This document shows positions 1 through 17,335 of a stretch of DNA of 17,335 nt, in pieces (within the stretch, counting starts at the first letter, position 1; each line of letters opens with the position of its first letter). Below the pieces are notes generated by a model. The model was not told where the DNA came from and did no database searches. It saw only the letters and a program-made list of their open reading frames with translations. The stretch comes from a virus, in UHGV virus genome UHGV-1687067. One strand, given 5' to 3'. A program made the translations under genes and the position numbers.

Positions 1-421
1 GACATATCAAGTATTTCGCATCCCCACGGTAGCCGCCGTGTGTGTCAATATGATGATCCGTGACCTCCTGTTATATGACGGCGGCCTGAAATGGTCGGCT
101 ACAACATGCGCCGCCGCTGGCGCAATCACGGTGCTGATAAATTACGACGCCGGGATGGTGGCGATCGCGTCATTCGTCGCGGTTGTTTCCGGTGCGCTTA
201 TTTCTGGCGGCGTTTACCGGGTTTTACCTGGTGACTTTGATTCTAAACGTTGGCCTGCAAATATAGCGTCCGCCATTGGTGATGCGTTAATTTTTCCTAC
301 GCTATCGTTTATGGCGTTCATGCCGGAAATATCAGCTATGCAATTCATCTCAAAAATGGCAGCGGTAACGGTGATTACTATCATCATGCGACGCTACTTC
401 ACGTTTGAGGGTAGAAAATGA
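1..421 (+). CDS. Hydrophobic integral membrane protein, 5'-truncated by window edge (function unknown; VUT/YhhQ-like transporter only a weak guess)
   Basis: Frame of track ORF 38..421 stays open back to position 2, so the gene starts upstream of the window. Translation is dominated by hydrophobic stretches (AAAGAITVLINYDAGMVAIASFVAVVSGALISGGVY; AAVTVITIIM). Stop overlaps next start (ATGA at 418-421). Confidence 0.45.
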   Translation, partial: TYQVFRIPTVAAVCVNMMIRDLLLYDGGLKWSATTCAAAGAITVLINYDAGMVAIASFVAVVSGALISGGVYRVLPGDFDSKRWPANIASAIGDALIFPTLSFMAFMPEISAMQFISKMAAVTVITIIMRRYFTFEGRK

Positions 422-1227
422 GCGGGCTTAGAAATTGGGTTGTCTGGTCGCTGTATGACGGCAGCGGGTACGCAGTTAAAGATTGGGCGGACGCAGGATA
501 TAAGTGTTATTGCTTCAACTATGACGGCGCTAATCACGGGGATTATGACGGGGTAAAAATAATTCATCCAAATATTGAATATGTCAATGTCTGGATTGAT
601 AGCTATTTCCTGGTAATGTTCTCCCCTGAATTGTCTGTATATCCAGATCCTGACATTATCCTGGGGTTTCCTCCGTGTGATGATCTTGCTGTGTCAGGCG
701 CTCGTTGGTTCGCTGACAAGCGGAAGAAAGATCCTTACTTCCAGCAAAAAGCAGCGCACAACGCAAAGTTAGTAGAAATGCTGGCGAGTATGTATAACGT
801 CCCGTGGATGGTGGAAAATCCGGTGGGCGCACTGTCAACGCTATGGCGTAAACCGGATTTTATCTTCAATCCGTGCGCTTACGGTGGCTACCTACCGGAA
901 GATGACAAGCATCCTGCTTTCCCGGAGTACATCGCCGACCGCGACGCCTACACGAAGAAAACTTGTATTTGGTGCGGGAATGGATTTAAGCAGCCGCTTT
1001 TGCTGGATTTTTTTTGGGGGGGGATGGTTTTTAAGCAGCCGCTATTCCGGCCTGTGCCGATGCCAGATGAATGGGAAGACAGTAAGCAGCACGCGAAGTT
1101 AGGCGGAAAGTCGAAGCGCACTAAGATGATCCGCTCACTAACGCCGCGCGGCTTTGCCCGTGCTGTATTCCTGGCTAACGACCGGGCCATCAATCGTACT
1201 ACGCTCAACCGCGTTTTACCGGACTAA
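418..1227 (+). CDS. DNA (cytosine-5) methyltransferase-like protein
   Basis: Motifs in canonical C5-MTase order: WSLYDGSGY (motif I-like AdoMet site), GFPPCDDLAVSGA (Pro-Cys catalytic motif IV), MVENPVGAL (ENV motif VI). ATG at 418. Contains internal T8G8 tract and FKQPL duplication near C-terminus. Confidence 0.65.
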   Translation: MSGLRNWVVWSLYDGSGYAVKDWADAGYKCYCFNYDGANHGDYDGVKIIHPNIEYVNVWIDSYFLVMFSPELSVYPDPDIILGFPPCDDLAVSGARWFADKRKKDPYFQQKAAHNAKLVEMLASMYNVPWMVENPVGALSTLWRKPDFIFNPCAYGGYLPEDDKHPAFPEYIADRDAYTKKTCIWCGNGFKQPLLLDFFWGGMVFKQPLFRPVPMPDEWEDSKQHAKLGGKSKRTKMIRSLTPRGFARAVFLANDRAINRTTLNRVLPD

Positions 1228-1250
1228 AGTTTACAAAATGGCGTCATTGC

Positions 1251-1264
1251 GTGATGTGGATCAC
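1251..1264. promoter_or_regulatory. Inverted repeat GTGAT-GTGG-ATCAC (operator-like site, copy 1)
   Basis: 5-bp arms are exact reverse complements with 4-bp spacer; same half-sites recur at 7222-7235. Confidence 0.3.
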
Positions 1265-1282
1265 ATAATGGCGCTTTTCGTC

Positions 1283-1310
1283 TTGTTATGACGTATCCAT
1301 TTTGTATACT
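1283..1310 (+). promoter_or_regulatory. Candidate sigma70-type promoter (TTGTTA-16 nt-TATACT) upstream of the ninF-like/ninG/rusA/Q cluster
   Basis: -35-like TTGTTA (1283-1288) and -10-like TATACT (1305-1310), 16-nt spacer, in the 159-bp gap between methyltransferase and next gene. Hexamer matching only. Confidence 0.25.
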
Positions 1311-1386
1311 TCAAGCAAACAAAATGCTCTTTAAAAATCCGGCAGCGCTGAAATGCGTAGAAATCACCTGAAAAGGAGAGAGCATT

Positions 1387-1563
1387 ATGTCTTTCGAAAA
1401 TTACCAATGGCATGACGACTATGAACGAGAAAGCGTCATGCGTGCAATGTGCAATGTATGCAGCACGAAGAAGGGAGGCTGTAACGAGTGCAACGAATGC
1501 TTAGAACATTGGCTAAGGGCCGGACACGCCGAAAGGCTGAACGAAACAGAGAATCAAAAATAA
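1387..1563 (+). CDS. Small Cys-rich protein (58 aa), NinF-like by position and length
   Basis: ATG at 1387 preceded by AAGGAG about 8 nt upstream; not in ORF track because under 60 aa. Translation MSFENYQWHDDYERESVMRAMCNVCSTKKGGCNECNECLEHW... has a CxxC...CxxCxxC pattern. Sits immediately upstream of ninG as ninF does in lambda; the NinF similarity is from memory. Confidence 0.4.
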   Translation: MSFENYQWHDDYERESVMRAMCNVCSTKKGGCNECNECLEHWLRAGHAERLNETENQK

Positions 1564-1577
1564 TCGGGGTGGTTTTT

Positions 1578-2183
1578 ATGCAAAACCCTAAAAAACCCAT
1601 AAGACGCCGTTGCAAATGCTGCGGCGTTTTTTTTGAGCCTAAATATCACAATCAAACGTGGTGCAGCGATGAATGTCTGGAAGAACTGAAGTTTGATCAG
1701 TTATGCCGCGACCGTGAGAAGGCTATGAAGGCTATGGAGCGGAAGAAACGCCGTGATAGCCAGAGGGAAGAACGCAACCGGAAGCGTAAACAGTTAAATC
1801 CGCGTAGTTATTGGATCAAACAAGTTCAAAATGTATTTAACGCCTATATTCGCGAACGTGACGCGCGCTTGCCGTGTATATCTTGCGGGACTTACTACGG
1901 TGAGCAATGCGGGTGGGATGCAGGTCATTACAGGACGGTAGCCGCCGCCGGACATCTTCGCTTTAACGAGGATAATTGCCATAAACAATGCAGGCACTGC
2001 AACCAGACATTAGACGGGAACATAGGAGGGTATCGCCCGGCACTGATTCGAAAAATTGGCCTCGCCAGGGTGGTAGCGCTGGAAAACAACAATGATACGC
2101 ATAAATGGACGATCGCAGAATGTAAGGAGCTAATAAACATCTATCAGGCTAAATTGGACGCCTTAAGGAGAAAGGCAGCATGA
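1578..2183 (+). CDS. ninG: NinG/Rap-family recombination protein
   Basis: Translation from internal ATG 1578 (MQNPKKPIRRRCKCCGVFFEP...PRSYWIKQ...LPCISCG...WDAGHYRT...LRFNE.N.HKQC..CNQ...WTIAECKEL) matches lambda NinG along its length, including conserved Cys/His residues. Track start 1488 is a GTG extension overlapping the upstream small gene and is rejected. Confidence 0.85.
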   Translation: MQNPKKPIRRRCKCCGVFFEPKYHNQTWCSDECLEELKFDQLCRDREKAMKAMERKKRRDSQREERNRKRKQLNPRSYWIKQVQNVFNAYIRERDARLPCISCGTYYGEQCGWDAGHYRTVAAAGHLRFNEDNCHKQCRHCNQTLDGNIGGYRPALIRKIGLARVVALENNNDTHKWTIAECKELINIYQAKLDALRRKAA

Positions 2184-2587
2184 ATGAATATTCTTTTAGC
2201 CTGCCTTACCCGCCATCGAATAATCGCTATTACCGACATTCGCGCGGTTTTCACTATATCAGCAAAGTGGGGAAGGAATACAGGGAACAAGTAAGAGACA
2301 TCATCGAGCTATTAAATTTAAATATTAACCTACCTTGCCGACTGGCAATTGCCATTTACGCCGCGCCGCCGGATAACCGGATCAGAGATCTGGATAATAT
2401 CCCTAAATGCCTTTTTGACAGCCTTACTTATGCCGGATTCTGGAGGGATGACGGGCAAATTGACTCAATAAAAATTGTCCGCTGCCGGAAGGTAAAAGGC
2501 GGACGCTTGTTTATTAAGATCCGCGAACGCGGCGACCTACTACCGGATATTGACGAATACGCGACTAATATGTGGGGTGAGCAATGA
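2180..2587 (+). CDS. rusA: RusA-family Holliday junction resolvase
   Basis: N-terminus [20 protein letters not shown] and [24 protein letters not shown] closely match E. coli/phage 82 RusA ([38 protein letters not shown]). Start overlaps ninG stop (ATGA). Confidence 0.85.
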   Translation: [135 protein letters not shown]

Positions 2588-2766
2588 AAAACGAAGTTAA
2601 AGATCTGCAAATAGATATTCAGCGCGACGAGCGTGATTTAGAGACGGTCCGACAAATCCAGGCTTTCCACATGCGCGAATTACTTGCGCTGAAAGAGTTC
2701 GAAAGAAAGCTGGTGCAATCCATTTCTGATCGTAAACGTCTGGCGGCACGTTATGAGGGCAAATAA
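2584..2766 (+). CDS. Hypothetical small protein (60 aa), charged, likely helical
   Basis: ORF with ATG overlapping rusA stop; translationally coupled to Q (TAATG at 2764-2768). No recognisable motif. Confidence 0.45.
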   Translation: MKNEVKDLQIDIQRDERDLETVRQIQAFHMRELLALKEFERKLVQSISDRKRLAARYEGK

Positions 2767-3494
2767 TGAATTTAGAATCCATTCTAAAATTCCACTTTCC
2801 TAAATCACCGCGATTATCTGACGAAAGCCGGGGCACGTCCCCGGACGCTCTTAATACGACGGATGCGCTAACCGCTGCGGGTATGGCGCAATCGCGCGTA
2901 GAGCTTGGATATAGCGCTTTTTTAGGGAAGATGGAACTATCACAAGCCGAAAAACACAGGGCCGTAGTTTTGCTTACAGAGCGTTTAAGGGCTATGGCGA
3001 AAGATTACGAATACGTGATGGAGTTAAACGAGGCACAACGCAATGATCTTATTATTCTTGTTTCCGTTTTCGCGTTTCGGGATTACTGCCAGAGTGCAGC
3101 GACCGAAAAAGTTTGCCCTAAGTGCGGCGGTCACGGGCATTTACCAAATCCATATTGCAAATACACATCAACAATTTGCGCACGGTGCGGCGGCAAAGGC
3201 TACGTTAAAAACCATTGCCAGCGGTGTAAGGGCCGTGGCGAAGTACCGGATAAAGCAGCCAGCGAAGCGGCGGAAATGCCAGTATTCAAAACGTGCCAGC
3301 ATTGCGGCGGGCGTGGGTACTCGCGTTTCCCGGTAGATCTCGTCCGGCAGGCGGTTAATCAGCTTGTTTTTCCGGTAAGCCGATCAACATGGTGGAAGAA
3401 ATACCGGGTTTTCTATGAAGACGCCATAGCGGAGCTATTCAAAGAAGAGGCCCGCGCGGAAAGCGAAATCAAACGAGTGACACGGGGTGAATAA
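2766..3494 (+). CDS. Q: Late-gene antitermination protein Q (lambda Q family) with four CxxCxGxG zinc-finger repeats
   Basis: N-terminus MNLESILKFHFPKSPRLSDESRGTSPDAL...AAGMAQS...GKMELSQ parallels lambda Q (MRLESVAKFHSPKSPMMSDSPRATASDSL...AAMGMAQSQ...GKHELSQ). Central region carries CPKCGGHG, CARCGGKG, CQRCKGRG, CQHCGGRGYSR. Confidence 0.85.
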   Translation: MNLESILKFHFPKSPRLSDESRGTSPDALNTTDALTAAGMAQSRVELGYSAFLGKMELSQAEKHRAVVLLTERLRAMAKDYEYVMELNEAQRNDLIILVSVFAFRDYCQSAATEKVCPKCGGHGHLPNPYCKYTSTICARCGGKGYVKNHCQRCKGRGEVPDKAASEAAEMPVFKTCQHCGGRGYSRFPVDLVRQAVNQLVFPVSRSTWWKKYRVFYEDAIAELFKEEARAESEIKRVTRGE

Positions 3495-3694
3495 TGGATA
3501 AGCTGGAAATAAACGATCAGTTTGCCGTTATCTTATTCGAAGATAAAACAGGCGGCGCATGGTGTAAGAAGGTCACTGGTGCTGAAGCACGCTTAATATT
3601 GGGTATGGCAAGCGCGTTAAATGAAGGCGAATTGCCCGCCATCCCTATTAAGCCTGTAAAAATTTACAAGCGTGGTGACGATGATGAAGCCTAA
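3494..3694 (+). CDS. Hypothetical protein (66 aa)
   Basis: ATG overlaps Q stop (TAATG); first gene of the tightly coupled small-gene island. Confidence 0.45.
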   Translation: MDKLEINDQFAVILFEDKTGGAWCKKVTGAEARLILGMASALNEGELPAIPIKPVKIYKRGDDDEA

Positions 3695-3956
3695 ATTAAA
3701 AGAGCATATTTACCGCCAGTTGGTTAACGATCTGACGGAAACGGCCCGTCATTACGCCGGAACACAACAGCTACGCGGGCGGTTATCTTCAGTTGTCAAC
3801 CGTTACATTGATACCGGATGTCATCGCAAAGGTGAAATCACGATGGACGAGGCCATCAAGCGCCGTTCTGCTGAATGGTCAGTGAGTAATACCGGATTAA
3901 CCGGATATATTGAAGGCTATAACGACTGTTTACAGGATCATAGCGATGGCAAGTAA
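3681..3956 (+). CDS. Hypothetical protein (about 91 aa)
   Basis: Track ORF begins at GTG 3672; internal ATG 3681 (MMKPKLKEH...) with GGTGA upstream is preferred. Confidence 0.4.
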   Translation: MMKPKLKEHIYRQLVNDLTETARHYAGTQQLRGRLSSVVNRYIDTGCHRKGEITMDEAIKRRSAEWSVSNTGLTGYIEGYNDCLQDHSDGK

Positions 3957-4254
3957 AGACCTGCATTTGAATCTGAAAGGGGAATATTTCCACGCTATCC
4001 GGGCGGGAAAGAAGGTGGAGGAATACCGGCTTTATAATGACTATTGGCGTAAACGTCTGGAAGGGCGGGAATATGAGCGCCTGATTATTAAATGGGGATA
4101 CCCTGCCAACCACGAAAAACACAGGATTATTAACCTTCCTTATTTTGGGTACGAAGTGAAAACTATCACACATCCATTATTCGGCACTGATCCGGTGAGA
4201 GTATTCGCAATTAAATGTGATGTGAATTGGATGTTAAGGTGGGTCGAGCAATGA
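3946..4254 (+). CDS. ASCH/PUA-like domain protein (putative)
   Basis: From ATG 3946: MASKDLHLNLKGEYFHAIRAGKKVEEYRLYNDYW... resembles the ASCH N-terminal signature (xLxxKxEYFxxIxxGxKxxExR), recalled from memory. Track start 3910 is TTG and rejected. Confidence 0.4.
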   Translation: MASKDLHLNLKGEYFHAIRAGKKVEEYRLYNDYWRKRLEGREYERLIIKWGYPANHEKHRIINLPYFGYEVKTITHPLFGTDPVRVFAIKCDVNWMLRWVEQ

Positions 4255-4463
4255 AAAGTAACCGTAAACGCCTTGTAAGGGCATATGACAAAGCATTAAT
4301 GACTTTTGATGATCTACGACACAATAAGCGCCGCCGCCGTAAATGGGCGCGTATGCTTGTTAGTGAATGGCATGATGAGGATTTTTTCCTTGAAGCCAGG
4401 CACATGACGCAGGATGTAGCGGACGCATTAGCTGACGAGAACGTTTATTACATGATGTGGTGA
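4251..4463 (+). CDS. Hypothetical basic protein (70 aa)
   Basis: ATG 4251 overlaps upstream stop (ATGA), AAGGTGGG upstream. Arg/Lys-rich (NKRRRRKWAR). Track start 4227 is TTG. Confidence 0.4.
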   Translation: MKSNRKRLVRAYDKALMTFDDLRHNKRRRRKWARMLVSEWHDEDFFLEARHMTQDVADALADENVYYMMW

Positions 4464-4467
4464 TAAT

Positions 4468-4833
4468 ATGCAAATAATCATTGATTATCTTTGCCATGCT
4501 GCAAATACGCTTTTTGGTTTTTATCAGCAACCATTCCTCAAAGAATGGGACGAAATGCTTAATGACATCATTGATAAAGGGTTAATAGTTGAAGTAGGCG
4601 AGCTAACTATAAAATTTAATTACGAAGGAAAAGAATATGATATATGGGTAGGCAACAGATGGTACGCATACGGGCATATTTATTCAATTGGCGGCAAATA
4701 CATTAAACGTAGCCAGGAGTTCAGACCGCGATTCCGCACAATGCGCCGCCTGCGTGACCTGCATATGAATATACTTGAAAATCAGGAAGCGTGTGAACTA
4801 TTCAAAATCTACGGAGATAAATCATGGAACTAA
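4468..4833 (+). CDS. Hypothetical protein (121 aa)
   Basis: ATG 4468, 4 nt after upstream stop; no recognisable motif. Confidence 0.45.
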   Translation: MQIIIDYLCHAANTLFGFYQQPFLKEWDEMLNDIIDKGLIVEVGELTIKFNYEGKEYDIWVGNRWYAYGHIYSIGGKYIKRSQEFRPRFRTMRRLRDLHMNILENQEACELFKIYGDKSWN

Positions 4834-5054
4834 AAATCTGGCAGGCTATCGACGTAGTTGATAACGCGTTATCTATGTTCGCCACTAACGGGAAACGCGT
4901 TGTGATAGCTACATGGACACGTAACCATGATGATATTGTTTTTCGTCGCAAGGCTGCGGAGTGGCTTTTCTCTGACAACGGCTACACGATGAATATCATG
5001 CAGCTTTCCAGAATGAAGGATGAAAAGCTGGTTGATAGTTACACAACTGCATAG
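4824..5054 (+). CDS. Hypothetical protein (76 aa)
   Basis: ATG 4824 overlaps upstream gene end; part of coupled array. Confidence 0.4.
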   Translation: MELKIWQAIDVVDNALSMFATNGKRVVIATWTRNHDDIVFRRKAAEWLFSDNGYTMNIMQLSRMKDEKLVDSYTTA

Positions 5055-5064
5055 TGGGGCAAAT

Positions 5065-5298
5065 ATGTGTATCTATGAACACAAGCGGGATAAAACCCGC
5101 TTTTTTGTTCGTGCTGGCGTGGCTTACCAGTATCACGACTGCGGATATATCGAGGCGCTTGCTTACGATCTGGACTTCGAACAAGAAAAAGAATGGTTCG
5201 ATTTCAAAATTTACCGGAAGCGTAAACCGACGCGCGACGAGCGACACGCTATCCGGGACTTTTTAATCAGCATAGACCGCTGGGAGACAGAGGAATGA
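5065..5298 (+). CDS. Hypothetical protein (about 77 aa)
   Basis: Preferred ATG 5065 (MCIYEHKRDK...) just after upstream stop at 5054; track start 5020 would overlap the upstream gene by 35 nt. Confidence 0.35.
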   Translation: MCIYEHKRDKTRFFVRAGVAYQYHDCGYIEALAYDLDFEQEKEWFDFKIYRKRKPTRDERHAIRDFLISIDRWETEE

Positions 5299-5582
5299 GA
5301 GCGAAGAAAACAGCAGATCAGAAAGCGTTAGTTATCACTACAACTGATGTGTCGTTATTCACGAAGGGTGAAGAAATAGATCTTAAATTACTTTTCGGCA
5401 TGTTTGAGCCACACGAAAAGCCGTGGTTCGTGCATGAAGACAAACAGGGAAATATGCGCGTAGTAGTGCCGGACAAAAACAGCGACATATTTTTTGCTAT
5501 TCCAGACCCGTTACATGACGGTGAATTGCTGGCGGTATTGTTGATCGCTGATGCTGTTACTTATAAAGGGAAAGAAATATGA
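5295..5582 (+). CDS. Hypothetical protein (95 aa)
   Basis: ATGA overlap with upstream stop; GGAG 8 nt upstream. Confidence 0.45.
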   Translation: MRAKKTADQKALVITTTDVSLFTKGEEIDLKLLFGMFEPHEKPWFVHEDKQGNMRVVVPDKNSDIFFAIPDPLHDGELLAVLLIADAVTYKGKEI

Positions 5583-5806
5583 AAGTTAAATTCTTGCACG
5601 ATCACGGCTACCCATCATTAAAACGCGTGGTAGGGGAAACGGTAGACGTTGTTCATTCTGATGATGTGACCTGCGTCATTTTGGGTAAAGACCTTATCGC
5701 TCACGGTGCTGATGATTACTACATTAACCCAGCGTGGTCATATACGTTTAGCCTGGGCGACTTCGTAGGCGATAAGGGGCGCGGCTTGCAAGTAGTCGAG
5801 GGTTAA
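5579..5806 (+). CDS. Hypothetical protein (75 aa)
   Basis: ATGA start/stop overlap at 5579-5582. Confidence 0.45.
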   Translation: MKVKFLHDHGYPSLKRVVGETVDVVHSDDVTCVILGKDLIAHGADDYYINPAWSYTFSLGDFVGDKGRGLQVVEG

Positions 5807-5810
5807 TATC

Positions 5811-6026
5811 ATGGACGTTTACGAAGATTTATACCTTCAAACAAATACCAGCACTTTTTATTTTTTGAAAAACGGCGTCGTATATCGCAGCGATGACGGG
5901 GTAATAATGAAAGAGTGGCTATTTAAACGCAAAGACCTACTTGATGACCTGGTTTTTGCCGGGATATTCCGTAAACGTCCGGCTAACCTGGAAGAAGAAA
6001 TGCTGATCGACGAGGTATTAAAATGA
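5811..6026 (+). CDS. Hypothetical protein (71 aa), possible member of the FxxNGxxY paralog family
   Basis: ATG 5811 with GAGGG upstream; contains FYFLKNGVVYRSDDG, resembling the N-terminal motif of the 6268-7219 paralogs. Confidence 0.4.
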   Translation: MDVYEDLYLQTNTSTFYFLKNGVVYRSDDGVIMKEWLFKRKDLLDDLVFAGIFRKRPANLEEEMLIDEVLK

Positions 6027-6268
6027 AAGTGAATTATTTCAGGGCAAAAGACAAGGCAACAGGAAAGCGGGTGGCTATCCTGGTTAATGAAGCAAATTAT
6101 ATGTTTGTTCTCCAGCCGTGGTGCATAGCTGACTATAACGATGATTATCGCCGTCACGCTGCGCGGCGGGCGGTCGGGATGAAAGGCTGGCAGCCTCGCG
6201 ACATGCTTAATTACTGCGACTGGAATCTGATAGCAAAATACACGGTCGATTATAAAGGGGTTTTCTGA
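6023..6268 (+). CDS. Hypothetical protein (81 aa)
   Basis: ATGA overlap at 6023-6026. Confidence 0.45.
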   Translation: MKVNYFRAKDKATGKRVAILVNEANYMFVLQPWCIADYNDDYRRHAARRAVGMKGWQPRDMLNYCDWNLIAKYTVDYKGVF

Positions 6269-6480
6269 TGCAAGTTAAATGCTCATACTCAAGCAATGAC
6301 AGTGTTTTCACGATTGGGAGTATTTATGACGTTCACATCGTTTATGGCAATGAAGCACACACAATGAGTAATTGCCTTGCCTTGATTGATAATCATGACG
6401 AAATATGGGTATTCAGGCCGAGCTATGAAGGCGGTGAAATATCCGGTGTAGGTTTTGCTGCCAGCTTTGAACGTTATTAA
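6268..6480 (+). CDS. Small paralog-family protein A (70 aa)
   Basis: ATG 6268 overlaps upstream stop; AAAGGGG upstream. Motifs FTIGSIY and IDNHDEIWVF align with the neighbouring three genes. Confidence 0.45.
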   Translation: MQVKCSYSSNDSVFTIGSIYDVHIVYGNEAHTMSNCLALIDNHDEIWVFRPSYEGGEISGVGFAASFERY

Positions 6481-6490
6481 AGGGGCAACA

Positions 6491-6748
6491 ATGAAACATT
6501 TATATTTTGAGGTATTGCAGACGCGCGACCGCAATATTTTTGAAGAAGGGAAGATCTATTGCGGCGTTCAACTCCACGGCGCACCGGGCGGTGATGGTGC
6601 AATGGCGATAACTGGCGATGATGATAAAGTTTATTTCGCTTATGTTAGCCATATCAATAACGCCGCTGGTTTGTATATTTATCGCATAGTGCATGATTTC
6701 CGTGAGATCGCGGAGTTTTGCGCCCGCGAAGGCAGTAAACCGGAATAA
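6491..6748 (+). CDS. Small paralog-family protein B (85 aa)
   Basis: Internal ATG 6491 (MKHLYF...) preceded by AAAGGGG, the same SD context as gene A. Motifs FEEGKIY and ITGDDDKVYFAY. Confidence 0.45.
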   Translation: MKHLYFEVLQTRDRNIFEEGKIYCGVQLHGAPGGDGAMAITGDDDKVYFAYVSHINNAAGLYIYRIVHDFREIAEFCAREGSKPE

Positions 6749-6758
6749 GTGAGGTGCT

Positions 6759-6998
6759 ATGAATCGGAAACATAGATACCAGTGCACATACTCACGATGC
6801 AGCGCGTTTTTTAAGAATGGCAAGATCTACGAGGTTGACGCGGCATTGGTTGACGCAAAGGATCAGGAATATATTCATGCCATTACTGACGACCAGGGGC
6901 AGTTATGGCGATTTTATAAGATGGGTTGTGGCACGGCGCTTGTTTATGCGCGTGCTGGTGGTGGTGCTTTTGCTGCGTTTTCGTATGTAGGGGTATGA
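6759..6998 (+). CDS. Small paralog-family protein C (79 aa)
   Basis: ATG 6759 with GTGAGGTG upstream. Motifs FFKNGKIY and ITDDQGQLWRFY. Confidence 0.45.
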   Translation: MNRKHRYQCTYSRCSAFFKNGKIYEVDAALVDAKDQEYIHAITDDQGQLWRFYKMGCGTALVYARAGGGAFAAFSYVGV

Positions 6999-7000
6999 AA

Positions 7001-7219
7001 ATGATTTTAACGTGTAACGAATCGAAATTGGGCTGTTTTGAGGAAGGCGTACAGTACACGGCTGAAAAACCGATGGGATTGTCTCCTAAATTTCCGTTTA
7101 TCGTCGTGACTGACACTTACGGTCACTTATGGTATGCAGGGCCGCTAGGCGGTATTGGTCGTTATGTTGTCCGTAGTTCGGATGGGGCGATGAAGGTTAC
7201 TTTTACGGAAGAAACGTAA
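7001..7219 (+). CDS. Small paralog-family protein D (72 aa)
   Basis: ATG 7001 (MILTCNESKLGCFEEGVQY...VVTDTYGHLWYAG); in-frame ATG 6995 also possible. Track start 6926 is a long extension in another gene's region and is rejected. Confidence 0.4.
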   Translation: MILTCNESKLGCFEEGVQYTAEKPMGLSPKFPFIVVTDTYGHLWYAGPLGGIGRYVVRSSDGAMKVTFTEET

Positions 7220-7220
7220 A

Positions 7221-7236
7221 TGTGATCTGTATCACA
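7221..7236. promoter_or_regulatory. Palindromic site TGTGAT-CTGT-ATCACA; fits CRP consensus half-sites TGTGA-N6-TCACA (operator-like site, copy 2)
   Basis: Exact 6-bp inverted arms around a 4-bp spacer, 2 nt after the stop at 7219, in a 98-bp intergenic gap. CRP consensus is textbook knowledge; binding is not demonstrated. Confidence 0.35.
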
Positions 7237-7245
7237 AGGTTTACG

Positions 7246-7282
7246 AAATGGCATTGTTTCGGCAGTGCCATTTTGTTATAAA
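7246..7282 (+). promoter_or_regulatory. Hairpin (AAATGGCATTG / CAGTGCCATTT) followed by T-rich run, overlapping a promoter-like TTGTTT-17 nt-TATAAA
   Basis: About 11-bp stem with one G-U wobble and 6-nt loop at 7246-7273, then TTTTGTT. TATAAA at 7277-7282 with TTGTTT 17 nt upstream. Could be terminator, attenuator or promoter. Confidence 0.25.
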
Positions 7283-7317
7283 GAAGCTGAAGAGAGAACG
7301 ATGCGGAGGGTAGAAAA

Positions 7318-7596
7318 ATGAAACGCTGGATTAACAAAGAAGTCGAATCTCGCTTAAACGCATTTTGGGAGATGGTGGAGAAAGAAGACCCAGCACACGC
7401 TGCAAGCCCTTACCTGAACAACATCGAATATCACTACATTGCAGCAAACAACGCGGAGTTCGAAGAAGAAGGTGGAGCCGACAAGTTCGCACAAAGCAAC
7501 GCATTCAACAACGCAAACGAAATGATGATGGCAGTCATCGAACAGGCAGAGGAAGACTACGAATGCAAATCACTTGAATTCGCACGTATGGCATAA
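7318..7596 (+). CDS. Hypothetical acidic protein (92 aa)
   Basis: ATG 7318 with GGAGGG upstream; first gene after the 98-bp regulatory gap. Net charge about -11 (19 Asp/Glu vs 8 Lys/Arg). Confidence 0.5.
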   Translation: MKRWINKEVESRLNAFWEMVEKEDPAHAASPYLNNIEYHYIAANNAEFEEEGGADKFAQSNAFNNANEMMMAVIEQAEEDYECKSLEFARMA

Positions 7597-7606
7597 GGGG
7601 GAAACC

Positions 7607-7747
7607 ATGAACGCTAACGCTAAATATCCGGCCTGGGTTTTCGAACTGTACGCAAGATACTTTGAATTACTGGCACAAGGTGAAGAAGCATTAAGCATTG
7701 ACGAGTACGCGGAGTGCTTAGGGTTTAAAGGAGACGAAGAAGCATAA
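7607..7747 (+). CDS. Hypothetical small acidic protein (46 aa)
   Basis: ATG 7607 with AAGGGGG upstream; MNANAKYPAWVFELYARYFELLAQGEEALSIDEYAECLGFKGDEEA. Not in ORF track (under 60 aa). Confidence 0.35.
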   Translation: MNANAKYPAWVFELYARYFELLAQGEEALSIDEYAECLGFKGDEEA

Positions 7748-7752
7748 AACAC

Positions 7753-7768
7753 GGGGCCGGATGGCCCC
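7753..7768 (+). other. GC-rich hairpin GGGGCC-GGAT-GGCCCC in intergenic gap
   Basis: Perfect 6-bp GC stem with 4-nt loop between genes ending 7747 and starting 7791; no following U-tract, so more likely a stability or processing element than a terminator. Confidence 0.3.
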
Positions 7769-7790
7769 ATCAAATCAGAAGGGTGTAATC

Positions 7791-8090
7791 ATGAAAAGCG
7801 CTAAATTTATTGCTTGCTGTTTTGTTGAAGTTCCTAACGATGATGTTTTCTGTAATTATGAATTTAAAGACAGCTTAGGCAGATCTCATGTTGTTGTTGG
7901 TAAGCGCGGCGACTGGTTATATATCACTGATGGAGACAGGATCTTCACTAAAAACCAGTTGTTAATAATAAAGGCAGAAAATGATGAAATACCAGTAGGT
8001 AATATGGGGATTATGAATTATCACGCTGGTTTATTGTTAAAGCACGATACGGTAAACAAAGCGCGTAGCTTACCTGGTGCGGAGTTTTAA
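7791..8090 (+). CDS. Hypothetical protein (99 aa)
   Basis: Internal ATG 7791 (MKSAKFIACCF...) with AGAAGGGTG upstream; track start 7761 rejected. Confidence 0.45.
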   Translation: MKSAKFIACCFVEVPNDDVFCNYEFKDSLGRSHVVVGKRGDWLYITDGDRIFTKNQLLIIKAENDEIPVGNMGIMNYHAGLLLKHDTVNKARSLPGAEF

Positions 8091-8093
8091 TTT

Positions 8094-8348
8094 ATGGAAA
8101 TAATCAAAATATGGCGCGGCAACAGTAAGGCTGACGGTGAGTTTTGCCGCGTCGTTCAATTCGTAAATTATGGTAGGTTTTACGAGCTACCTTATGACAA
8201 AAGGAAAGATGATTTCTATTTAAGCGAGTCAATCCCGGTGCACAGAAAAATAAAGGCGCTTAGGGGGTTATTGCGAAGTGGTTTTTATTCTTGCCCTAAC
8301 CCATTAAACAATCCTGAACTGGTAGCTATTTTTTACGAAGGAGAATAG
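8094..8348 (+). CDS. Hypothetical protein (84 aa)
   Basis: ATG 8094 with GGAG upstream, 3 nt after upstream stop. Confidence 0.45.
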   Translation: MEIIKIWRGNSKADGEFCRVVQFVNYGRFYELPYDKRKDDFYLSESIPVHRKIKALRGLLRSGFYSCPNPLNNPELVAIFYEGE

Positions 8349-8351
8349 ACA

Positions 8352-8675
8352 ATGTCTAAATTTATCAGCGTTAAAGTTTTCCGTGGCACTTTACCGAACG
8401 AAGAAAGATTAGGACAATTTGCCGGGCAACCTAGTGCATGTTTCCGTGTAGCCACTGAAGACGATGCGCATGTTAAATGCTTCCACGTATCGGAACCGCC
8501 TTTTAATGCAGACCATCTTGAAGACCCGGATAGAATTAAAAGCCTAGTTTTTGCCTATCTGATGTTCCAGGGTATCGCTAATATGGAAGTGGAATTGCTT
8601 GGCGCTGAACTGGCGGCAGAATACAAAGTGACTGAAGGCGAAAACGGAGGGGTGGAAATTGAGCGCATCAAATAA
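8352..8675 (+). CDS. Hypothetical protein (107 aa)
   Basis: ATG 8352 with AAGGAGAA upstream. Confidence 0.5.
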   Translation: MSKFISVKVFRGTLPNEERLGQFAGQPSACFRVATEDDAHVKCFHVSEPPFNADHLEDPDRIKSLVFAYLMFQGIANMEVELLGAELAAEYKVTEGENGGVEIERIK

Positions 8676-8910
8676 ACCTTACAAGATCCGGTGTAAAGGC
8701 GAATACCCTGGGTTTACGATTGGTTGCGAATACCTGGGCCACATTGGGTACGGCCCTTTCGGTGAGTTAGGGATGAATACGATGGACGACGACGGCGACA
8801 GCAGGACGCTTGATCTTGATTCTGATGATTTCGAATACATCCCTCCAGTTACTTACCGTGCCGTTGATGATTTCCTGGCTGAACATGAAGACGAGGGCGA
8901 TGATGATTGA
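8659..8910 (+). CDS. Hypothetical protein with strongly acidic C-terminus (83 aa), probable TTG start
   Basis: No in-frame ATG or GTG near the 5' end; TTG 8659 has GGAGGGG about 5 nt upstream. C-terminal half is Asp/Glu-rich (DDDGDSRTLDLDSDDFEY...EHEDEGDDD). Confidence 0.4.
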   Translation: MSASNKPYKIRCKGEYPGFTIGCEYLGHIGYGPFGELGMNTMDDDGDSRTLDLDSDDFEYIPPVTYRAVDDFLAEHEDEGDDD

Positions 8911-9097
8911 ATGCCTTATAGCTGTGATTGTTTTGCTTTATATCGCTGGCGCTATCCTGATGTCTTGTTTTATTAAGTTTAGCGGAGCTGAACCTGGCGG
9001 CCTTGAGATTCCTTTTTGGCCTGTGACTGTGTTTATCGCTTTCTTCGACGCTACGGCAGGGCAGATCAATCGAGCTATTAAGGAGCGCAAGAAATGA
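8903..9097 (+). CDS. Small membrane protein (about 64 aa, two predicted hydrophobic helices)
   Basis: ATG 8900 or 8903 in frame of track ORF 8810..9097. Translation MIECLIAVIVLLYIAGAILMSCF...FWPVTVFIAFF is hydrophobic; track N-terminal extension rejected. Confidence 0.4.
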   Translation: MIECLIAVIVLLYIAGAILMSCFIKFSGAEPGGLEIPFWPVTVFIAFFDATAGQINRAIKERKK

Positions 9098-9273
9098 TTG
9101 AAGATGGGGTGTACGCAACAGTAGTAGACGGGCTGTTTTACCGCGTAGAAGGTGATGATATTCGCATCCGCGTTGGCGGTGGTGAGTGGGTAGCGCCAAT
9201 CATTAAGACGACGCGAGAAACAATTAAAATATTTCTTGATGCTGGTGAACTGGTGAGGGTTAGCGACCTATGA
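9094..9273 (+). CDS. Hypothetical small protein (59 aa), paralog of the next gene
   Basis: ATG 9094 with AAGGAG upstream, overlaps upstream stop (ATGA). MIEDGVYATVVDGLFYRVEGDDIRIRVGG... Not in ORF track. Confidence 0.4.
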   Translation: MIEDGVYATVVDGLFYRVEGDDIRIRVGGGEWVAPIIKTTRETIKIFLDAGELVRVSDL

Positions 9274-9446
9274 ACGAGATCGAAGATGGTATCTATTTGC
9301 ATAAGGTATTTAACATCGTCTATTTACTTAAAGGTAATAAGGTGATGATAAGACCTGATGACGATCCACATTGGGAATCAAGCGACATGGATCGGCGGCA
9401 TATGCAAATGTTGGTTGATAACGGCCTGATATATAGAAAGCCGTAA
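9270..9446 (+). CDS. Hypothetical small protein (58 aa), paralog of the previous gene
   Basis: ATGA overlap at 9270-9273, GTGAGGG upstream. MNEIEDGIYLHKVFNIVYLLKGNKVMIRPDDD... shares the N-terminal (I)EDG(V/I)Y motif. Not in ORF track. Confidence 0.4.
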   Translation: MNEIEDGIYLHKVFNIVYLLKGNKVMIRPDDDPHWESSDMDRRHMQMLVDNGLIYRKP

Positions 9447-9453
9447 GCCGTAT

Positions 9454-9482
9454 TTGTAGGGCGTAAACAAACAGATTAAAAT
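9454..9482 (+). promoter_or_regulatory. Candidate late promoter (PR'-like): TTGTAG-17 nt-TAAAAT
   Basis: Hexamers with 17-nt spacer in the gap upstream of the holin, about 30 nt before an intrinsic terminator, as in the lambda PR'-tR' arrangement. Weak -35; inference only. Confidence 0.3.
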
Positions 9483-9510
9483 ATTTCCTAACAATGCGAA
9501 ATTGTAATTA

Positions 9511-9532
9511 CCCGGCCCCGCGCCGGGTTTTT
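9511..9532 (+). terminator. Rho-independent terminator (tR'-like) just upstream of the lysis cassette
   Basis: CCCGGC-cccgc-GCCGGG (6-bp GC stem, 5-nt loop) followed by TTTTT, about 20 nt before the holin SD (GGAGG at 9541-9545). Confidence 0.6.
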
Positions 9533-9552
9533 GCTTTGTTGGAGGAAAATCT

Positions 9553-12792: not shown

Positions 12793-14281
12793 CAGAGAGG
12801 TTCTAAGGGGGTTGTGTGTTAAAGGTTGTGCTCCCAAAGACATATCAGCACCTTTGTTTTTTAGTTCCTACTTTTATAAGCAACAGGTTGGCAAGGACTT
12901 TTTGGTTGGGCGTCATCACAGAATAATTGCCGATACGCTACAACGAGTTATTAATGGTGAAATCACCAGGTTGATAATCAACATCCCACCGGGCTATGGC
13001 AAAACAATGATTGCCACAATTCACATGATGGCCCGCTGCCTCGCAATAGAACCCCGCACCAGATTCCTGCATGTATCGTATTCACACGGACTCGCCTTGC
13101 TTAATTCCTCAGAGACAAGAAACATAATCACGATGCCGCAATATCAGGAATTGTGGCCTATGCAAATGCGCAACGATTCGAACGCGAAAAACCTGTGGTG
13201 GACCACTCAGGGTGGCGGCGTGTATGCGACGTCATCGCTTGGACAGGTGACAGGGTTCCGCGCCGGGTACATGGAACCTGGGTTTAACGGCGCAATGATT
13301 ATTGATGACCCCCTGAAACCAGCTGACGCTTATTCTGATGTGGTGCGAAAGCAGGTTAATACCAATTACAACGACACGCTTTCTTCGCGCCTGGCTGTGC
13401 AAACAACGCCAGTGATCGTCATCATGCAGCGTATCCACTACGATGATTTATCCGGCTACCTGTTACGTGGCGGTAGTGGTGAGAAATGGCATCACCTTTG
13501 CCTGCCAGTGAAGATCGACAACAGTCTTGACTATTGGGATCTGTACCCGGAAAACAAATTCGCTATTCCTGTTCCTCACAACCTGCCGGATGGCTGGCTA
13601 TGGTTGCATAAGCATAGTGATAAAGATGAATCAACTCTTAAATCACATCGCCGAACATTCGAAGCTCAATATATGCAGTGTCCGCGCAAGTTCGATCAAG
13701 AGGGCGCATTGTGGACTGAAGCGATGATAACCGCCGCGCACAGGATGCAGATAACGCAGGAGAAAATTCGCACGGTGATAGCCATCGACCCGGCAACAAC
13801 ATCATCTGATGAGTCGGACGAAACCGGGATCGTGGCATGTTCCGCTTATGGTGGCGGCAAGTACGCTCAGTATTCTGTAGACGGTGACTACTCAGGCCGC
13901 ATGTCACCTAACGACTGGGCGCAAGCAGCAATGAACGCCTACAACATCCATGAAGCTGACGCGATGGTTATCGAAACCAACCAGGGTGGTGATATGGCAG
14001 AGGCCACACTACGCAATGCCGGATTCAAAGGCCGCATTGTTAAGGTACACGCAAGCAAAGGTAAATTCGCCCGTGCCGAACCAATATCTGCGCTATATGC
14101 ACAGGGAAGGGTGGCCCACACTGGTGAGTTGTACACGCTGGAAAATCAAATGATGGAATACGTGCCAGCCACCGCTAAAAAATCCCCTGACCGTATGGAC
14201 GCTATGGTATGGGGTATCACCGAATTAAGCCAACCACAGGCGATGGGCCTTATGTTACCTAAGCGTCTGCGCGGATTTTAA
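12767..14281 (+). CDS. Terminase large subunit
   Basis: 504 aa, AAGGAG upstream of ATG 12767; Walker A-like PPGYGKTM in N-terminal ATPase region; overlaps terS by 26 nt; followed by portal candidate. Confidence 0.8.
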   Translation: METATTKIDREVLRGLCVKGCAPKDISAPLFFSSYFYKQQVGKDFLVGRHHRIIADTLQRVINGEITRLIINIPPGYGKTMIATIHMMARCLAIEPRTRFLHVSYSHGLALLNSSETRNIITMPQYQELWPMQMRNDSNAKNLWWTTQGGGVYATSSLGQVTGFRAGYMEPGFNGAMIIDDPLKPADAYSDVVRKQVNTNYNDTLSSRLAVQTTPVIVIMQRIHYDDLSGYLLRGGSGEKWHHLCLPVKIDNSLDYWDLYPENKFAIPVPHNLPDGWLWLHKHSDKDESTLKSHRRTFEAQYMQCPRKFDQEGALWTEAMITAAHRMQITQEKIRTVIAIDPATTSSDESDETGIVACSAYGGGKYAQYSVDGDYSGRMSPNDWAQAAMNAYNIHEADAMVIETNQGGDMAEATLRNAGFKGRIVKVHASKGKFARAEPISALYAQGRVAHTGELYTLENQMMEYVPATAKKSPDRMDAMVWGITELSQPQAMGLMLPKRLRGF

Positions 14282-14299: not shown

Positions 14300-14429
14300 C
14301 TTCGAAAAATTTCCGAAGATGAACAAGAATAATTCTCAATTGGCTACATAAAATCTGCCTCACAATCCCCCGCAAGTTTTTATATTTTTCGCGTAGCAAC
14401 GCGTAAACATGTATTCAGGAGTAAACATT

Positions 14430-15800
14430 ATGCCATCCAATTTAGAATTGGCGGTTAATGCTGCCTTGTCACAACGCCAGGCGGCCTTTGCCCGCTATGC
14501 AGCCGCTAACCCATTCTCAATGGGTATTGATGCAAAACGTGATGCTGCGTGGAGTGAATACGGATTCAAAGAAGAAATCACCTATGCCGATTTATACAAA
14601 CTGTATCGTCGCGGTGGTATCGCTCACGGTGCTATTGAGAAGATCATTACTACGTGCTGGCGCACCAGGCCAACGCTGATTGAAGGTACGGAAGACGAGA
14701 AAGCGGAAAAGGAAACTTCGTGGGAAAGAGAAATCAAAAAACGATTCGACAATAGATTCTGGCGCGTAATTGCTGAATGCGATCGCCGCCGCCTCATCGG
14801 TCGTTATGCTGGACTGTTAATTCACGTCAGGGATAACAAGCCGTGGGATCAGCCAGTAACAAAAGGCGTAGGCATTGCCAAATTTACCCCCGTATGGGCT
14901 GGTGCTCTTACACCGAAGGACTTCGAAGAAAACCCGGATAAAGAAAACTATGGCCTGCCTACATGGTGGGAATACAAGGAGCGCATTAACAGTAAGACCA
15001 TAGCAAGAAAGATACATCCAGATCGCATATTTATCTTCGGTGATTATTCTGATGATGCCATCGCTTTCCTTGAACCGTCCTATAACGCATTCGTTTCACT
15101 GGAGAAAGTGGAAGGCGGCAGCGGTGAATCATTCCTGAAAAACGCAGCACGTCAACTGGCTATCTCGTTCGATAAAGAAATTGATTTCCGTTCTCTGGCT
15201 GCAACATACGGTTGCGACGTTACAGAGCTACGCGAAAAATTCAATGAAGCGGCAGAGGATATAAATAAAGGTAATGATGTGATGATGGCATTACAGGGAG
15301 CTACCGTTAGCCCGCTGGTTACTGCCGTAGCAGATCCTTCCGCTACCTATGACGTCAACCTGCAAACCGCAGCCGCTGGTATCGATATTCCAACGCGTAT
15401 CCTGGTTGGGAATCAGCAGGGCGAACGCGCATCAACCGAAGACCTCCGCTACTTCAATAACCGCTGCATGACCCGCCGTGAGGAAATAGGAGGTGAGCTT
15501 GAGGAGCTATTCCGCAAGATGGCAGATCTCCGCCTTATCAGTATGCCAGTAGACGTATCTGTACTGTGGGACGACCTTAACGCCATGACAAAAGCAGAGC
15601 TACTCGACGCGGCATACAAAATGGCACAAATCAATCAGGCATGTCTCGCTACTGGTGAGGAAATATTCAGCGGTGACGAGATCCGCGAAGCTGCCGGATA
15701 CGATGGCCCGGCTAGTGAGGTAGAACTGGAAGAGGAAAACGATGATGAATGTGAAGAAGATAATCAGGCGAATACCTCCAGCCGCGATAATGCCATCTAA
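14430..15800 (+). CDS. Portal protein (putative)
   Basis: 456 aa from ATG 14430 (AGGAG 8 nt upstream; track start 14409 rejected); located directly after terL, acidic C-terminal tail (EVELEEENDDECEEDNQ). Assignment rests on synteny and size, not a named motif. Confidence 0.55.
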   Translation: MPSNLELAVNAALSQRQAAFARYAAANPFSMGIDAKRDAAWSEYGFKEEITYADLYKLYRRGGIAHGAIEKIITTCWRTRPTLIEGTEDEKAEKETSWEREIKKRFDNRFWRVIAECDRRRLIGRYAGLLIHVRDNKPWDQPVTKGVGIAKFTPVWAGALTPKDFEENPDKENYGLPTWWEYKERINSKTIARKIHPDRIFIFGDYSDDAIAFLEPSYNAFVSLEKVEGGSGESFLKNAARQLAISFDKEIDFRSLAATYGCDVTELREKFNEAAEDINKGNDVMMALQGATVSPLVTAVADPSATYDVNLQTAAAGIDIPTRILVGNQQGERASTEDLRYFNNRCMTRREEIGGELEELFRKMADLRLISMPVDVSVLWDDLNAMTKAELLDAAYKMAQINQACLATGEEIFSGDEIREAAGYDGPASEVELEEENDDECEEDNQANTSSRDNAI

Positions 15801-16691: not shown

Positions 16692-17335
16692 GTGAGTAAA
16701 GAATTAATTCAGGTTAATACCAAATTAACCGCTAATACCATACGCCGGGAAACGTATAACGGGCGGGAACATATTGTTGTTCCGTCCTACACGTTACCCT
16801 TTAACATCGTAATGAACCGGGAATATTACCCGGAAGCTGAAATTATCGCTAATTACCAGTCACTGGAGGGTACGCTTGCCCCGCTGGGCCATCCTACCGT
16901 TGACGGTAAATTTGTTTCAGCATTTAGCCCGGAAGGATTAAACACGGGTTTTTGTGGTGCGTGGAACAGAAACGTTGAGTTACGCGGCAACCGTGTTTAT
17001 GTGGAAAAATGGGTGGATGTGGAAACCGCCAGCCATTCAAGCCAGGGCCGCGAATTATTAGCCCGACTGGAAGCACTGGAGAAAGGAGAAAGCAAAGATC
17101 CTATCTGGTCGTCCGTCGCTGTATATCGCCAGCGTATGCCAGCCACCGAAAAAATGAAAGCCCAGGGTGCTGACCATGTAGTGAAAATCATGTCGATCGA
17201 CCATGACGCTATCTTGCTGCATGAGCCGCCAGCCGCTTCGCCGGAACAGGGCGTAGGCTTAATGGTTAATACCGACCAGGCGAAGCCGTTAATGGCGGGG
17301 GGCATGAAAGAAAAAAGCTATTCCCTGTTCAGCGA
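16692..17335 (+). CDS. Head assembly protein (scaffold or prohead protease-like), 3'-truncated by window edge
   Basis: Open frame from GTG 16692 (GGAG about 9 nt upstream) to window end (214 codons, no stop): VSKELIQVNTKLTANTIRRETYNGREHIVVPSY... Absent from track because it has no stop. Function inferred from position only. Confidence 0.35.
   Translation, partial: MSKELIQVNTKLTANTIRRETYNGREHIVVPSYTLPFNIVMNREYYPEAEIIANYQSLEGTLAPLGHPTVDGKFVSAFSPEGLNTGFCGAWNRNVELRGNRVYVEKWVDVETASHSSQGRELLARLEALEKGESKDPIWSSVAVYRQRMPATEKMKAQGADHVVKIMSIDHDAILLHEPPAASPEQGVGLMVNTDQAKPLMAGGMKEKSYSLFS

Follow-up and report, generated by a model that had tools for sequence, protein, structure and literature searches.

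A private 45-nt segment with a T8G8 tract in a coliphage methyltransferase-like gene is probably an uncollapsed overlap between two sequence pieces

Genes and features of the window

The DNA analysed here (the window, a single stretch of 17,335 nt) came from a temperate coliphage of the mEp021/MagusPhagus type and covered its nin-Q-lysis-terminase-portal-head part. Identity was 86-90% to phages of that type and reached 97% to E. coli prophages. Such phages constitute the "mEpimmI" group, in which a putative DNA cytosine methyltransferase is listed among the proteins probably related to phage functions (PMC11893012).

Three other parts of the window and its relatives deserve mention. From the Q antiterminator to the holin (~3494-9550, ~6 kb) lay about 25 small ORFs on the same strand, of 45-120 aa and without Pfam matches, and this block was strongly mosaic in relatives, with identity down to 85-88% and variable gene content. 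The portal-like ORF 14409-15800 was Phage_portal_3 by Pfam in relatives, and in E. coli prophages it had the RefSeq/PGAP name "anti-CBASS protein Acb1 family protein"; this Acb1 name either is misleading or reflects a real fused or related domain. One relative (L032:2240-2764, GCA_900448115.1) carried a gene for an HNH_3 endonuclease between the lysozyme gene and the Rz-like lysis gene, where the window and the other relatives had none.

A small methyltransferase-like gene

ORF 418..1227 (+ strand) resembled small phage C5-cytosine methyltransferases and encoded 269 aa in the window and 254 aa in the allele that lacks the insertion described below. Its product matched PHROG 757 ("DNA methyltransferase") with E=2e-85 and contained the motifs D-G-S-G, P-P-C and E-N-P. 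The C5 catalytic motifs I (F/Y-D-G-S-G), IV (P-C) and VI (E-N-x) were checked in 17 homologues, and residues G15, S16, G17, P85, P86, C87, E133, N134 and P135 were invariant. An AF2 model of the 269-aa product (pTM 0.82) had a class I methyltransferase fold, and the top 37 Foldseek matches in the PDB were all DNMT3A/3B catalytic domains (E down to 6e-6, TM ~0.5). Weak profile matches to DNMT3B and M.HaeIII were also found (E = 0.02-0.04). A Pfam search of the 269-aa product gave nothing at E up to 1, including PF00145, and NCBIfam gave nothing either, leaving PHROG 757 as its sole family match; two homologues carried precomputed PF00145 matches. The PHROG 757 match, the conserved motifs and the DNMT3-like predicted fold make putative cytosine methyltransferase a reasonable label for this gene.

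The family was widespread, with 2396 matches at E up to 1e-5. In relatives, a separate gene for a Dam-type N6-adenine methylase lay three genes upstream. At the corresponding locus of one relative (L007:3698-4462; accession below) the gene caller gave only a 163-aa product (3971-4462) on DNA identical to the 254-aa allele, which is a difference in start site and no frameshift.

A direct repeat and a homopolymer tract in the gene

As the initial annotation had described, a 14-nt direct repeat (TTTAAGCAGCCGCT) occurred at 985-998 and 1030-1043, with T8 at 1008-1015 and G8 at 1016-1023; all of these coordinates agreed with the window sequence. Repeat and tract lay entirely within ORF 418..1227 (+, 269 aa), whose translation there reads ...CGNGFKQPLLLDFFWGGMVFKQPLF... 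(around the insert it was also given as ...WCGNGFKQPLLLDFFWGGMVFKQPLF...). The 14-mer was found twice in the window against 0.01 expected, and two copies appeared in none of 200 shuffles. T8G8 was found once, against an expectation of 0.01 even with up to two mismatches allowed. Apart from G8, no G or C run in the window exceeded 6, and 280 kb from 33 related loci contained none above that length, so G8 is out of character for this phage group. A natural T8 run was present at 1627-1634, in the NinG gene, within a 40-mer that was identical in 15 related loci; because that run is conserved, T8 alone is normal in the group.

A change of one base in either tract was predicted from the start to frameshift and truncate the methylase, and it does so: G7 or T7 gives 227 aa and G9 or T9 gives 205 aa, as against 269 aa for the intact frame. 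The ORF thus holds simple-sequence repeats, G8 and T8, whose length changes would switch its product.

The insertion is absent from relatives

The gene was compared with three independent assemblies encoding the same Q protein as the window (L007, GCA_052519125.1; L010, GCA_012978335.1; L011, Logan ERR4035131). Against the 810-nt gene, each of them showed 0 mismatches in 765 nt and a single 45-nt gap. In an alignment of seven sequences the gap fell at 985-1029 or, equivalently, at 999-1043, identifying the feature as a 45-nt in-frame insertion. Over ~9.4 kb (window 24-9494), only one further SNP, at 9414, separated the window from L007 and L011. The segment was therefore missing from independent assemblies of essentially the same DNA.

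None of 38 DNA orthologues (6 phages and 32 E. coli prophages) had the insertion. Each aligned in two pieces, and where the match was nearly full-length its span in the record was 45 nt shorter than its span in the query. Among 134 protein homologues fetched, none had the extra residues, and the longest did not exceed 262 aa. The motif K.TC.W.G..F..P was found in 122 of these, with zero spacing at the insertion site in every one; it was not found in the other 12. In the window this invariantly spaced motif was split by 15 extra residues (K-x-T-C-x-W-x-G-x-x|F-x-x-P). The insertion-free 254-aa protein was on record from several sources, and an exact-protein look-up of the 269-aa form returned no record. 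Patterns spanning both junctions with a variable tract of 8-26 nt had 0 matches in viral, genome and metagenome contig collections, as did the insert core TGGATTTTTTTTGGGGGGGGATGG. The comparison with orthologous methyltransferases that the initial annotation had proposed thus identified repeat and tract together as an insertion, missing from all relatives.

Close relatives covered the rest of the window, and no further indel or duplication was seen there. Differences from them were isolated SNPs up to 13794 and from 14267; in the intervening terminase-gene stretch (13795-14266) there were ~40 differences against L017, 15 against L024 and one against L019, L020 and L022.

Single-base differences from all close relatives numbered two. 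At 9414, C>G gives L49V in a 58-aa ORF (9270-9446), and the exact 58-aa protein with L49V had no record in an exact-protein look-up. The C>T change at 14266 falls in the large terminase gene and is synonymous.

The insert is a corrupted re-copy of the bases upstream

To the left of the insert, positions 963..984 (+) hold genuine gene sequence, TTGTATTTGGTGCGGGAATGGA, identical to L007, L010 and L011, which is the template of a corrupted image 45 nt downstream. The first copy of TTTAAGCAGCCGCT (985..998, +) follows, also genuine as judged from the sequence and the relatives, and supplies the last clean bases before the join. The next 9 nt at the join, TTTGCTGGA (999..1007, +), fit either register poorly, matching 1 of 9 positions of the true 954-962 and 4 of 9 of the true downstream ATTCCGGCC; they resemble the unmatched first 10 nt of the window. 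Positions 1008..1029 (+), T8 G8 ATGGTT, are a degraded in-register copy of 963-984. With the second copy of TTTAAGCAGCCGCT (1030..1043, +), clean sequence is back and the gene runs on normally, again by sequence and relatives.

At an offset of 45 nt, 954-998 and 999-1043 were identical at 29 of 45 positions. Tandem Repeats Finder did not report this 45-nt repeat in the window, because the copies are too diverged. At the same offset, which is set by the exact repeat, 1008-1043 matched 963-998 at 28 of 36 positions. The 22 of these that lie outside the exact repeat matched at 14, a value equalled by 71 of 200,000 random pairs of 22-mers (empirical p ~3.6e-4). T8G8 itself aligned to wild-type TTGTATTTGGTGCGGG, from which four changes (G->T, A->T, T->G and C->G) give the two homopolymers. 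When ~34,500 16-mers from both strands of the insertion-free window were searched, the single best match to T8G8 (12/16) was the in-register 16-mer at 963. Of the eight substitutions in 1008-1029, seven copy a neighbouring true base. The extra segment is thus a re-copy of the sequence beside the join, corrupted but in register, and is not foreign DNA.

Both ends of the window carry the same damage

The 5' end of the window (1..23) was degraded: 13 relatives share CGGCCCGTGGGTAATTCCGATCA where the window has GACATATCAAGTATTTCGCATCC. Against these concordant relatives, 0 of the first 10 nt matched, and 4 substitutions followed within 13 nt. Database matches to the window started at position 11 at the earliest and all ended by 17321. 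The 3' end (17299..17335) was degraded too, with 8 relatives agreeing against the window at 15 of 37 positions. Changes there included GGTGGCAATG to GGGGGGCATG and AAAATAG to AAAAAAG, and the last ~14 nt were essentially unmatched.

The layout of the ends mirrors that of the insert: some 10-14 unmatched terminal nt, inward of them a partly correct zone of 13-23 nt, and then perfect sequence. When the three partly correct zones (both ends and the insert) were taken together, 15 of 16 substitutions were copies of a neighbouring base; 6.7 were expected, and 0 of 200,000 simulations reached 15. The same type of error is therefore present in the insert and at the low-quality ends of the sequence. 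The degraded ends and the odd length of 17,335 suggest that the window represents an entire contig whose ends were left unpolished.

Origin of the insert

The comparisons show an insertion private to this sequence, which copies the adjacent sequence in register but in degraded form and has the error signature of both window ends. From the sequence, the 45-nt segment is most probably the uncollapsed overlap left where two sequence pieces, the second with a noisy head, were joined, and not a biological element. The inferred cause is not a mutation but a technical step, be it assembly, polishing, stitching or some other in-silico operation. The left piece would be clean to about 998-1000, and the right piece would begin ~45 nt further back in the true sequence, with its first ~31 nt error-ridden (9 nt unrecognisable and the next 22 nt partly correct). 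Placing the two end to end would give the true TTTAAGCAGCCGCT, then junk, then TTGTATTTGGTGCGGGAATGGA corrupted to TTTTTTTTGGGGGGGGATGGTT, then TTTAAGCAGCCGCT again. Since the errors swap a base for its neighbour, a T-rich stretch followed by a G-rich one would become T8G8. The join lies at about 1000|1001, and at 999-1000 the window has TT in place of a true AT, once more a neighbour copy. All three testable marks of such an overlap are present in the insert: absence from independent assemblies, a re-copy of the sequence beside the join, and shared errors at the sequence ends. Three points count against an artefact. The length is a multiple of three and leaves the frame open, which an artefact would do by a 1-in-3 chance and which is slightly more in keeping with a real mutation that is tolerated; at the join the left piece ends with hardly any degradation or none, whereas the window's 3' end is degraded; and there is a single such internal join in 17 kb.

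A real and very recent insertion in one phage or prophage, arising as an imperfect tandem duplication by template switching or by slipped realignment with error-prone synthesis, is unlikely but deserves consideration. The reading frame is kept, with the ORF running to its normal stop; in the AF2 model the extra residues form a loop of low confidence (pLDDT <50, 190-201) after strand 182-187 and leave the rest of the fold undisturbed; and the private differences at 9414 and 14266 could mean that this is a truly distinct isolate. Against this, the copies of a fresh duplication would be expected to be almost identical, and here only 14 contiguous nt of the 45 are exact, although the surrounding 765 nt are without substitution. 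Nor can the two copies (29/45) have diverged over time, since elsewhere the gene does not differ from its relatives by a single substitution. The neighbour-copy signature is also found at the window ends, where a mutation in the gene cannot apply, and the allele was in no other public sequence covered by the protein look-up or by the viral, genome and metagenome contig collections. It also splits a motif whose spacing is constant in 122 homologues. A real insertion would amount to one recent, probably damaging mutation of a gene that is otherwise ordinary, with 15 extra residues in a loop of a methyltransferase-like protein that would probably be crippled and at best would tolerate them. That such an insertion is physically real and at once created a slippage-prone T8G8 in an orphan cytosine methylase, a contingency locus at birth, seems very improbable; if this were true, self-methylation of the phage would be stochastically switchable.

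The reading put forward at first, an evolved contingency locus in which slippage in G8 or T8 toggles between full-length and truncated methylase and so makes methylation phase-variable, is slightly less probable still. It draws on the presence of both homopolymers inside the ORF and on the truncation that follows a one-base change in either. The tract, however, occurs at no length in any orthologue, having no counterpart in the 38 DNA orthologues or the 134 protein homologues, and tract-length variants numbered 0 in the viral, genome and metagenome contig collections, junction patterns included; the tract is instead a corrupted image of the adjacent sequence. A functional ON state is doubtful because even the in-frame form has its invariant motif (K.TC.W.G..|F..P) disrupted by 15 residues, which the AF2 model gives a pLDDT <50. 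The host, moreover, is E. coli. Phasevarions that rest on homopolymers are usually those of Haemophilus, Neisseria, Helicobacter and Campylobacter, and to our knowledge mismatch-repair-proficient E. coli and its temperate phages do not typically have them. The proposal of slipped-strand phase variation is therefore not supported. The fallback options offered with it fared better: an insertion or imperfect duplicate is indeed present and an artefact is favoured, albeit one of joining and not of merely miscounted homopolymer length. A mobile-element footprint or miniature insertion, with a 14-bp target-site duplication around 31 nt of element-derived DNA, is the least probable of these readings and close to negligible. 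Two exact 14-nt direct repeats do flank 31 nt, but 22 of the 31 nt repeat, in register and in degraded form, what lies upstream in the target itself, and are no foreign core. There are no terminal inverted repeats and no significant structure (fold z = -0.45), and the core TGGATTTTTTTTGGGGGGGGATGG did not recur at other sites, being nowhere in the viral, genome or metagenome contig collections.

Some further candidates were set aside. A terminator or an RNA or DNA structure created by the insert was rejected, as the region 700-1400 contained no terminator-like site and the fold z-score was -0.45. Mutagenesis of the diversity-generating retroelement type was rejected because the substitutions hit G, A, T and C alike and no reverse transcriptase was seen among the annotated genes of the relatives' matching regions. 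For adapter remnants at the ends or in the filler there was only a weak partial resemblance by eye, which does not count as evidence.

With the join artefact as the preferred reading, the source record would seem to contain one faulty join and to have been left unpolished at its ends. The private differences at 9414 and 14266 therefore need care; they may be true SNPs or further errors. A homopolymer in a methylase gene mimics a textbook phase-variation switch, and here it would have led to a false claim of a "phasevarion in a coliphage" together with a wrong 269-aa protein model. As a practical test, one can compare the locus with near-identical relatives and ask whether the adjacent sequence reappears in the insert, corrupted but in register, and whether the same error signature is present at the ends of the record.

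Comparison with known systems

In phasevarions, such as the mod genes of Haemophilus, Neisseria and Helicobacter, expression is switched by simple-sequence repeats. The gene described here resembles them in having a homopolymer within a methyltransferase-like ORF, where a one-base change truncates the protein. It differs in that the tract is private to one sequence, neither conserved nor length-polymorphic in orthologues, and sits in an insertion that splits a motif; the host is E. coli, and the gene is an orphan phage gene of the C5 type and not a Type III or Type I mod gene. The likeness is superficial.

Tandem duplication by slippage between short direct repeats shares with the insert a direct 45-nt period, the preserved frame and a local origin. 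Copies made in this way are nearly identical if the event is recent, whereas those in the window are identical at only 29 of 45 positions, with 14 contiguous exact nt, although the event must be very recent given the 0 other changes in the gene.

Uncollapsed overlaps and duplications occur at the joins of contigs, reads or chunks, for example as the repeated terminal k-mer of circular contigs or as stitch errors at window boundaries. Like these, the insert repeats a short true stretch in direct orientation at one point, is not found in independently made assemblies of the same DNA, falls at a round coordinate (~1000) and is accompanied by low-quality sequence ends. Unlike them, its second copy is not exact and is heavily corrupted by neighbour-copy errors, a pattern that could be traced to no particular program or platform.

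Without the insert, the gene is an ordinary one for the mEpimmI phage group: it encodes a methyltransferase-like protein of 254 aa and belongs with the known small phage C5-methyltransferase-like genes. It shares its motifs and a DNMT3-like predicted fold with the small orphan phage C5 methyltransferases of PHROG 757, annotated as "DNA cytosine methyltransferase" in mEp021 and related prophages, and its gene order (Dam, DUF6378, hypothetical, the methyltransferase-like gene, NinG, RusA, Q) is common to loci of this type. Compared with the other members of PHROG 757, the copy in the window is set apart by its 15-residue insertion.
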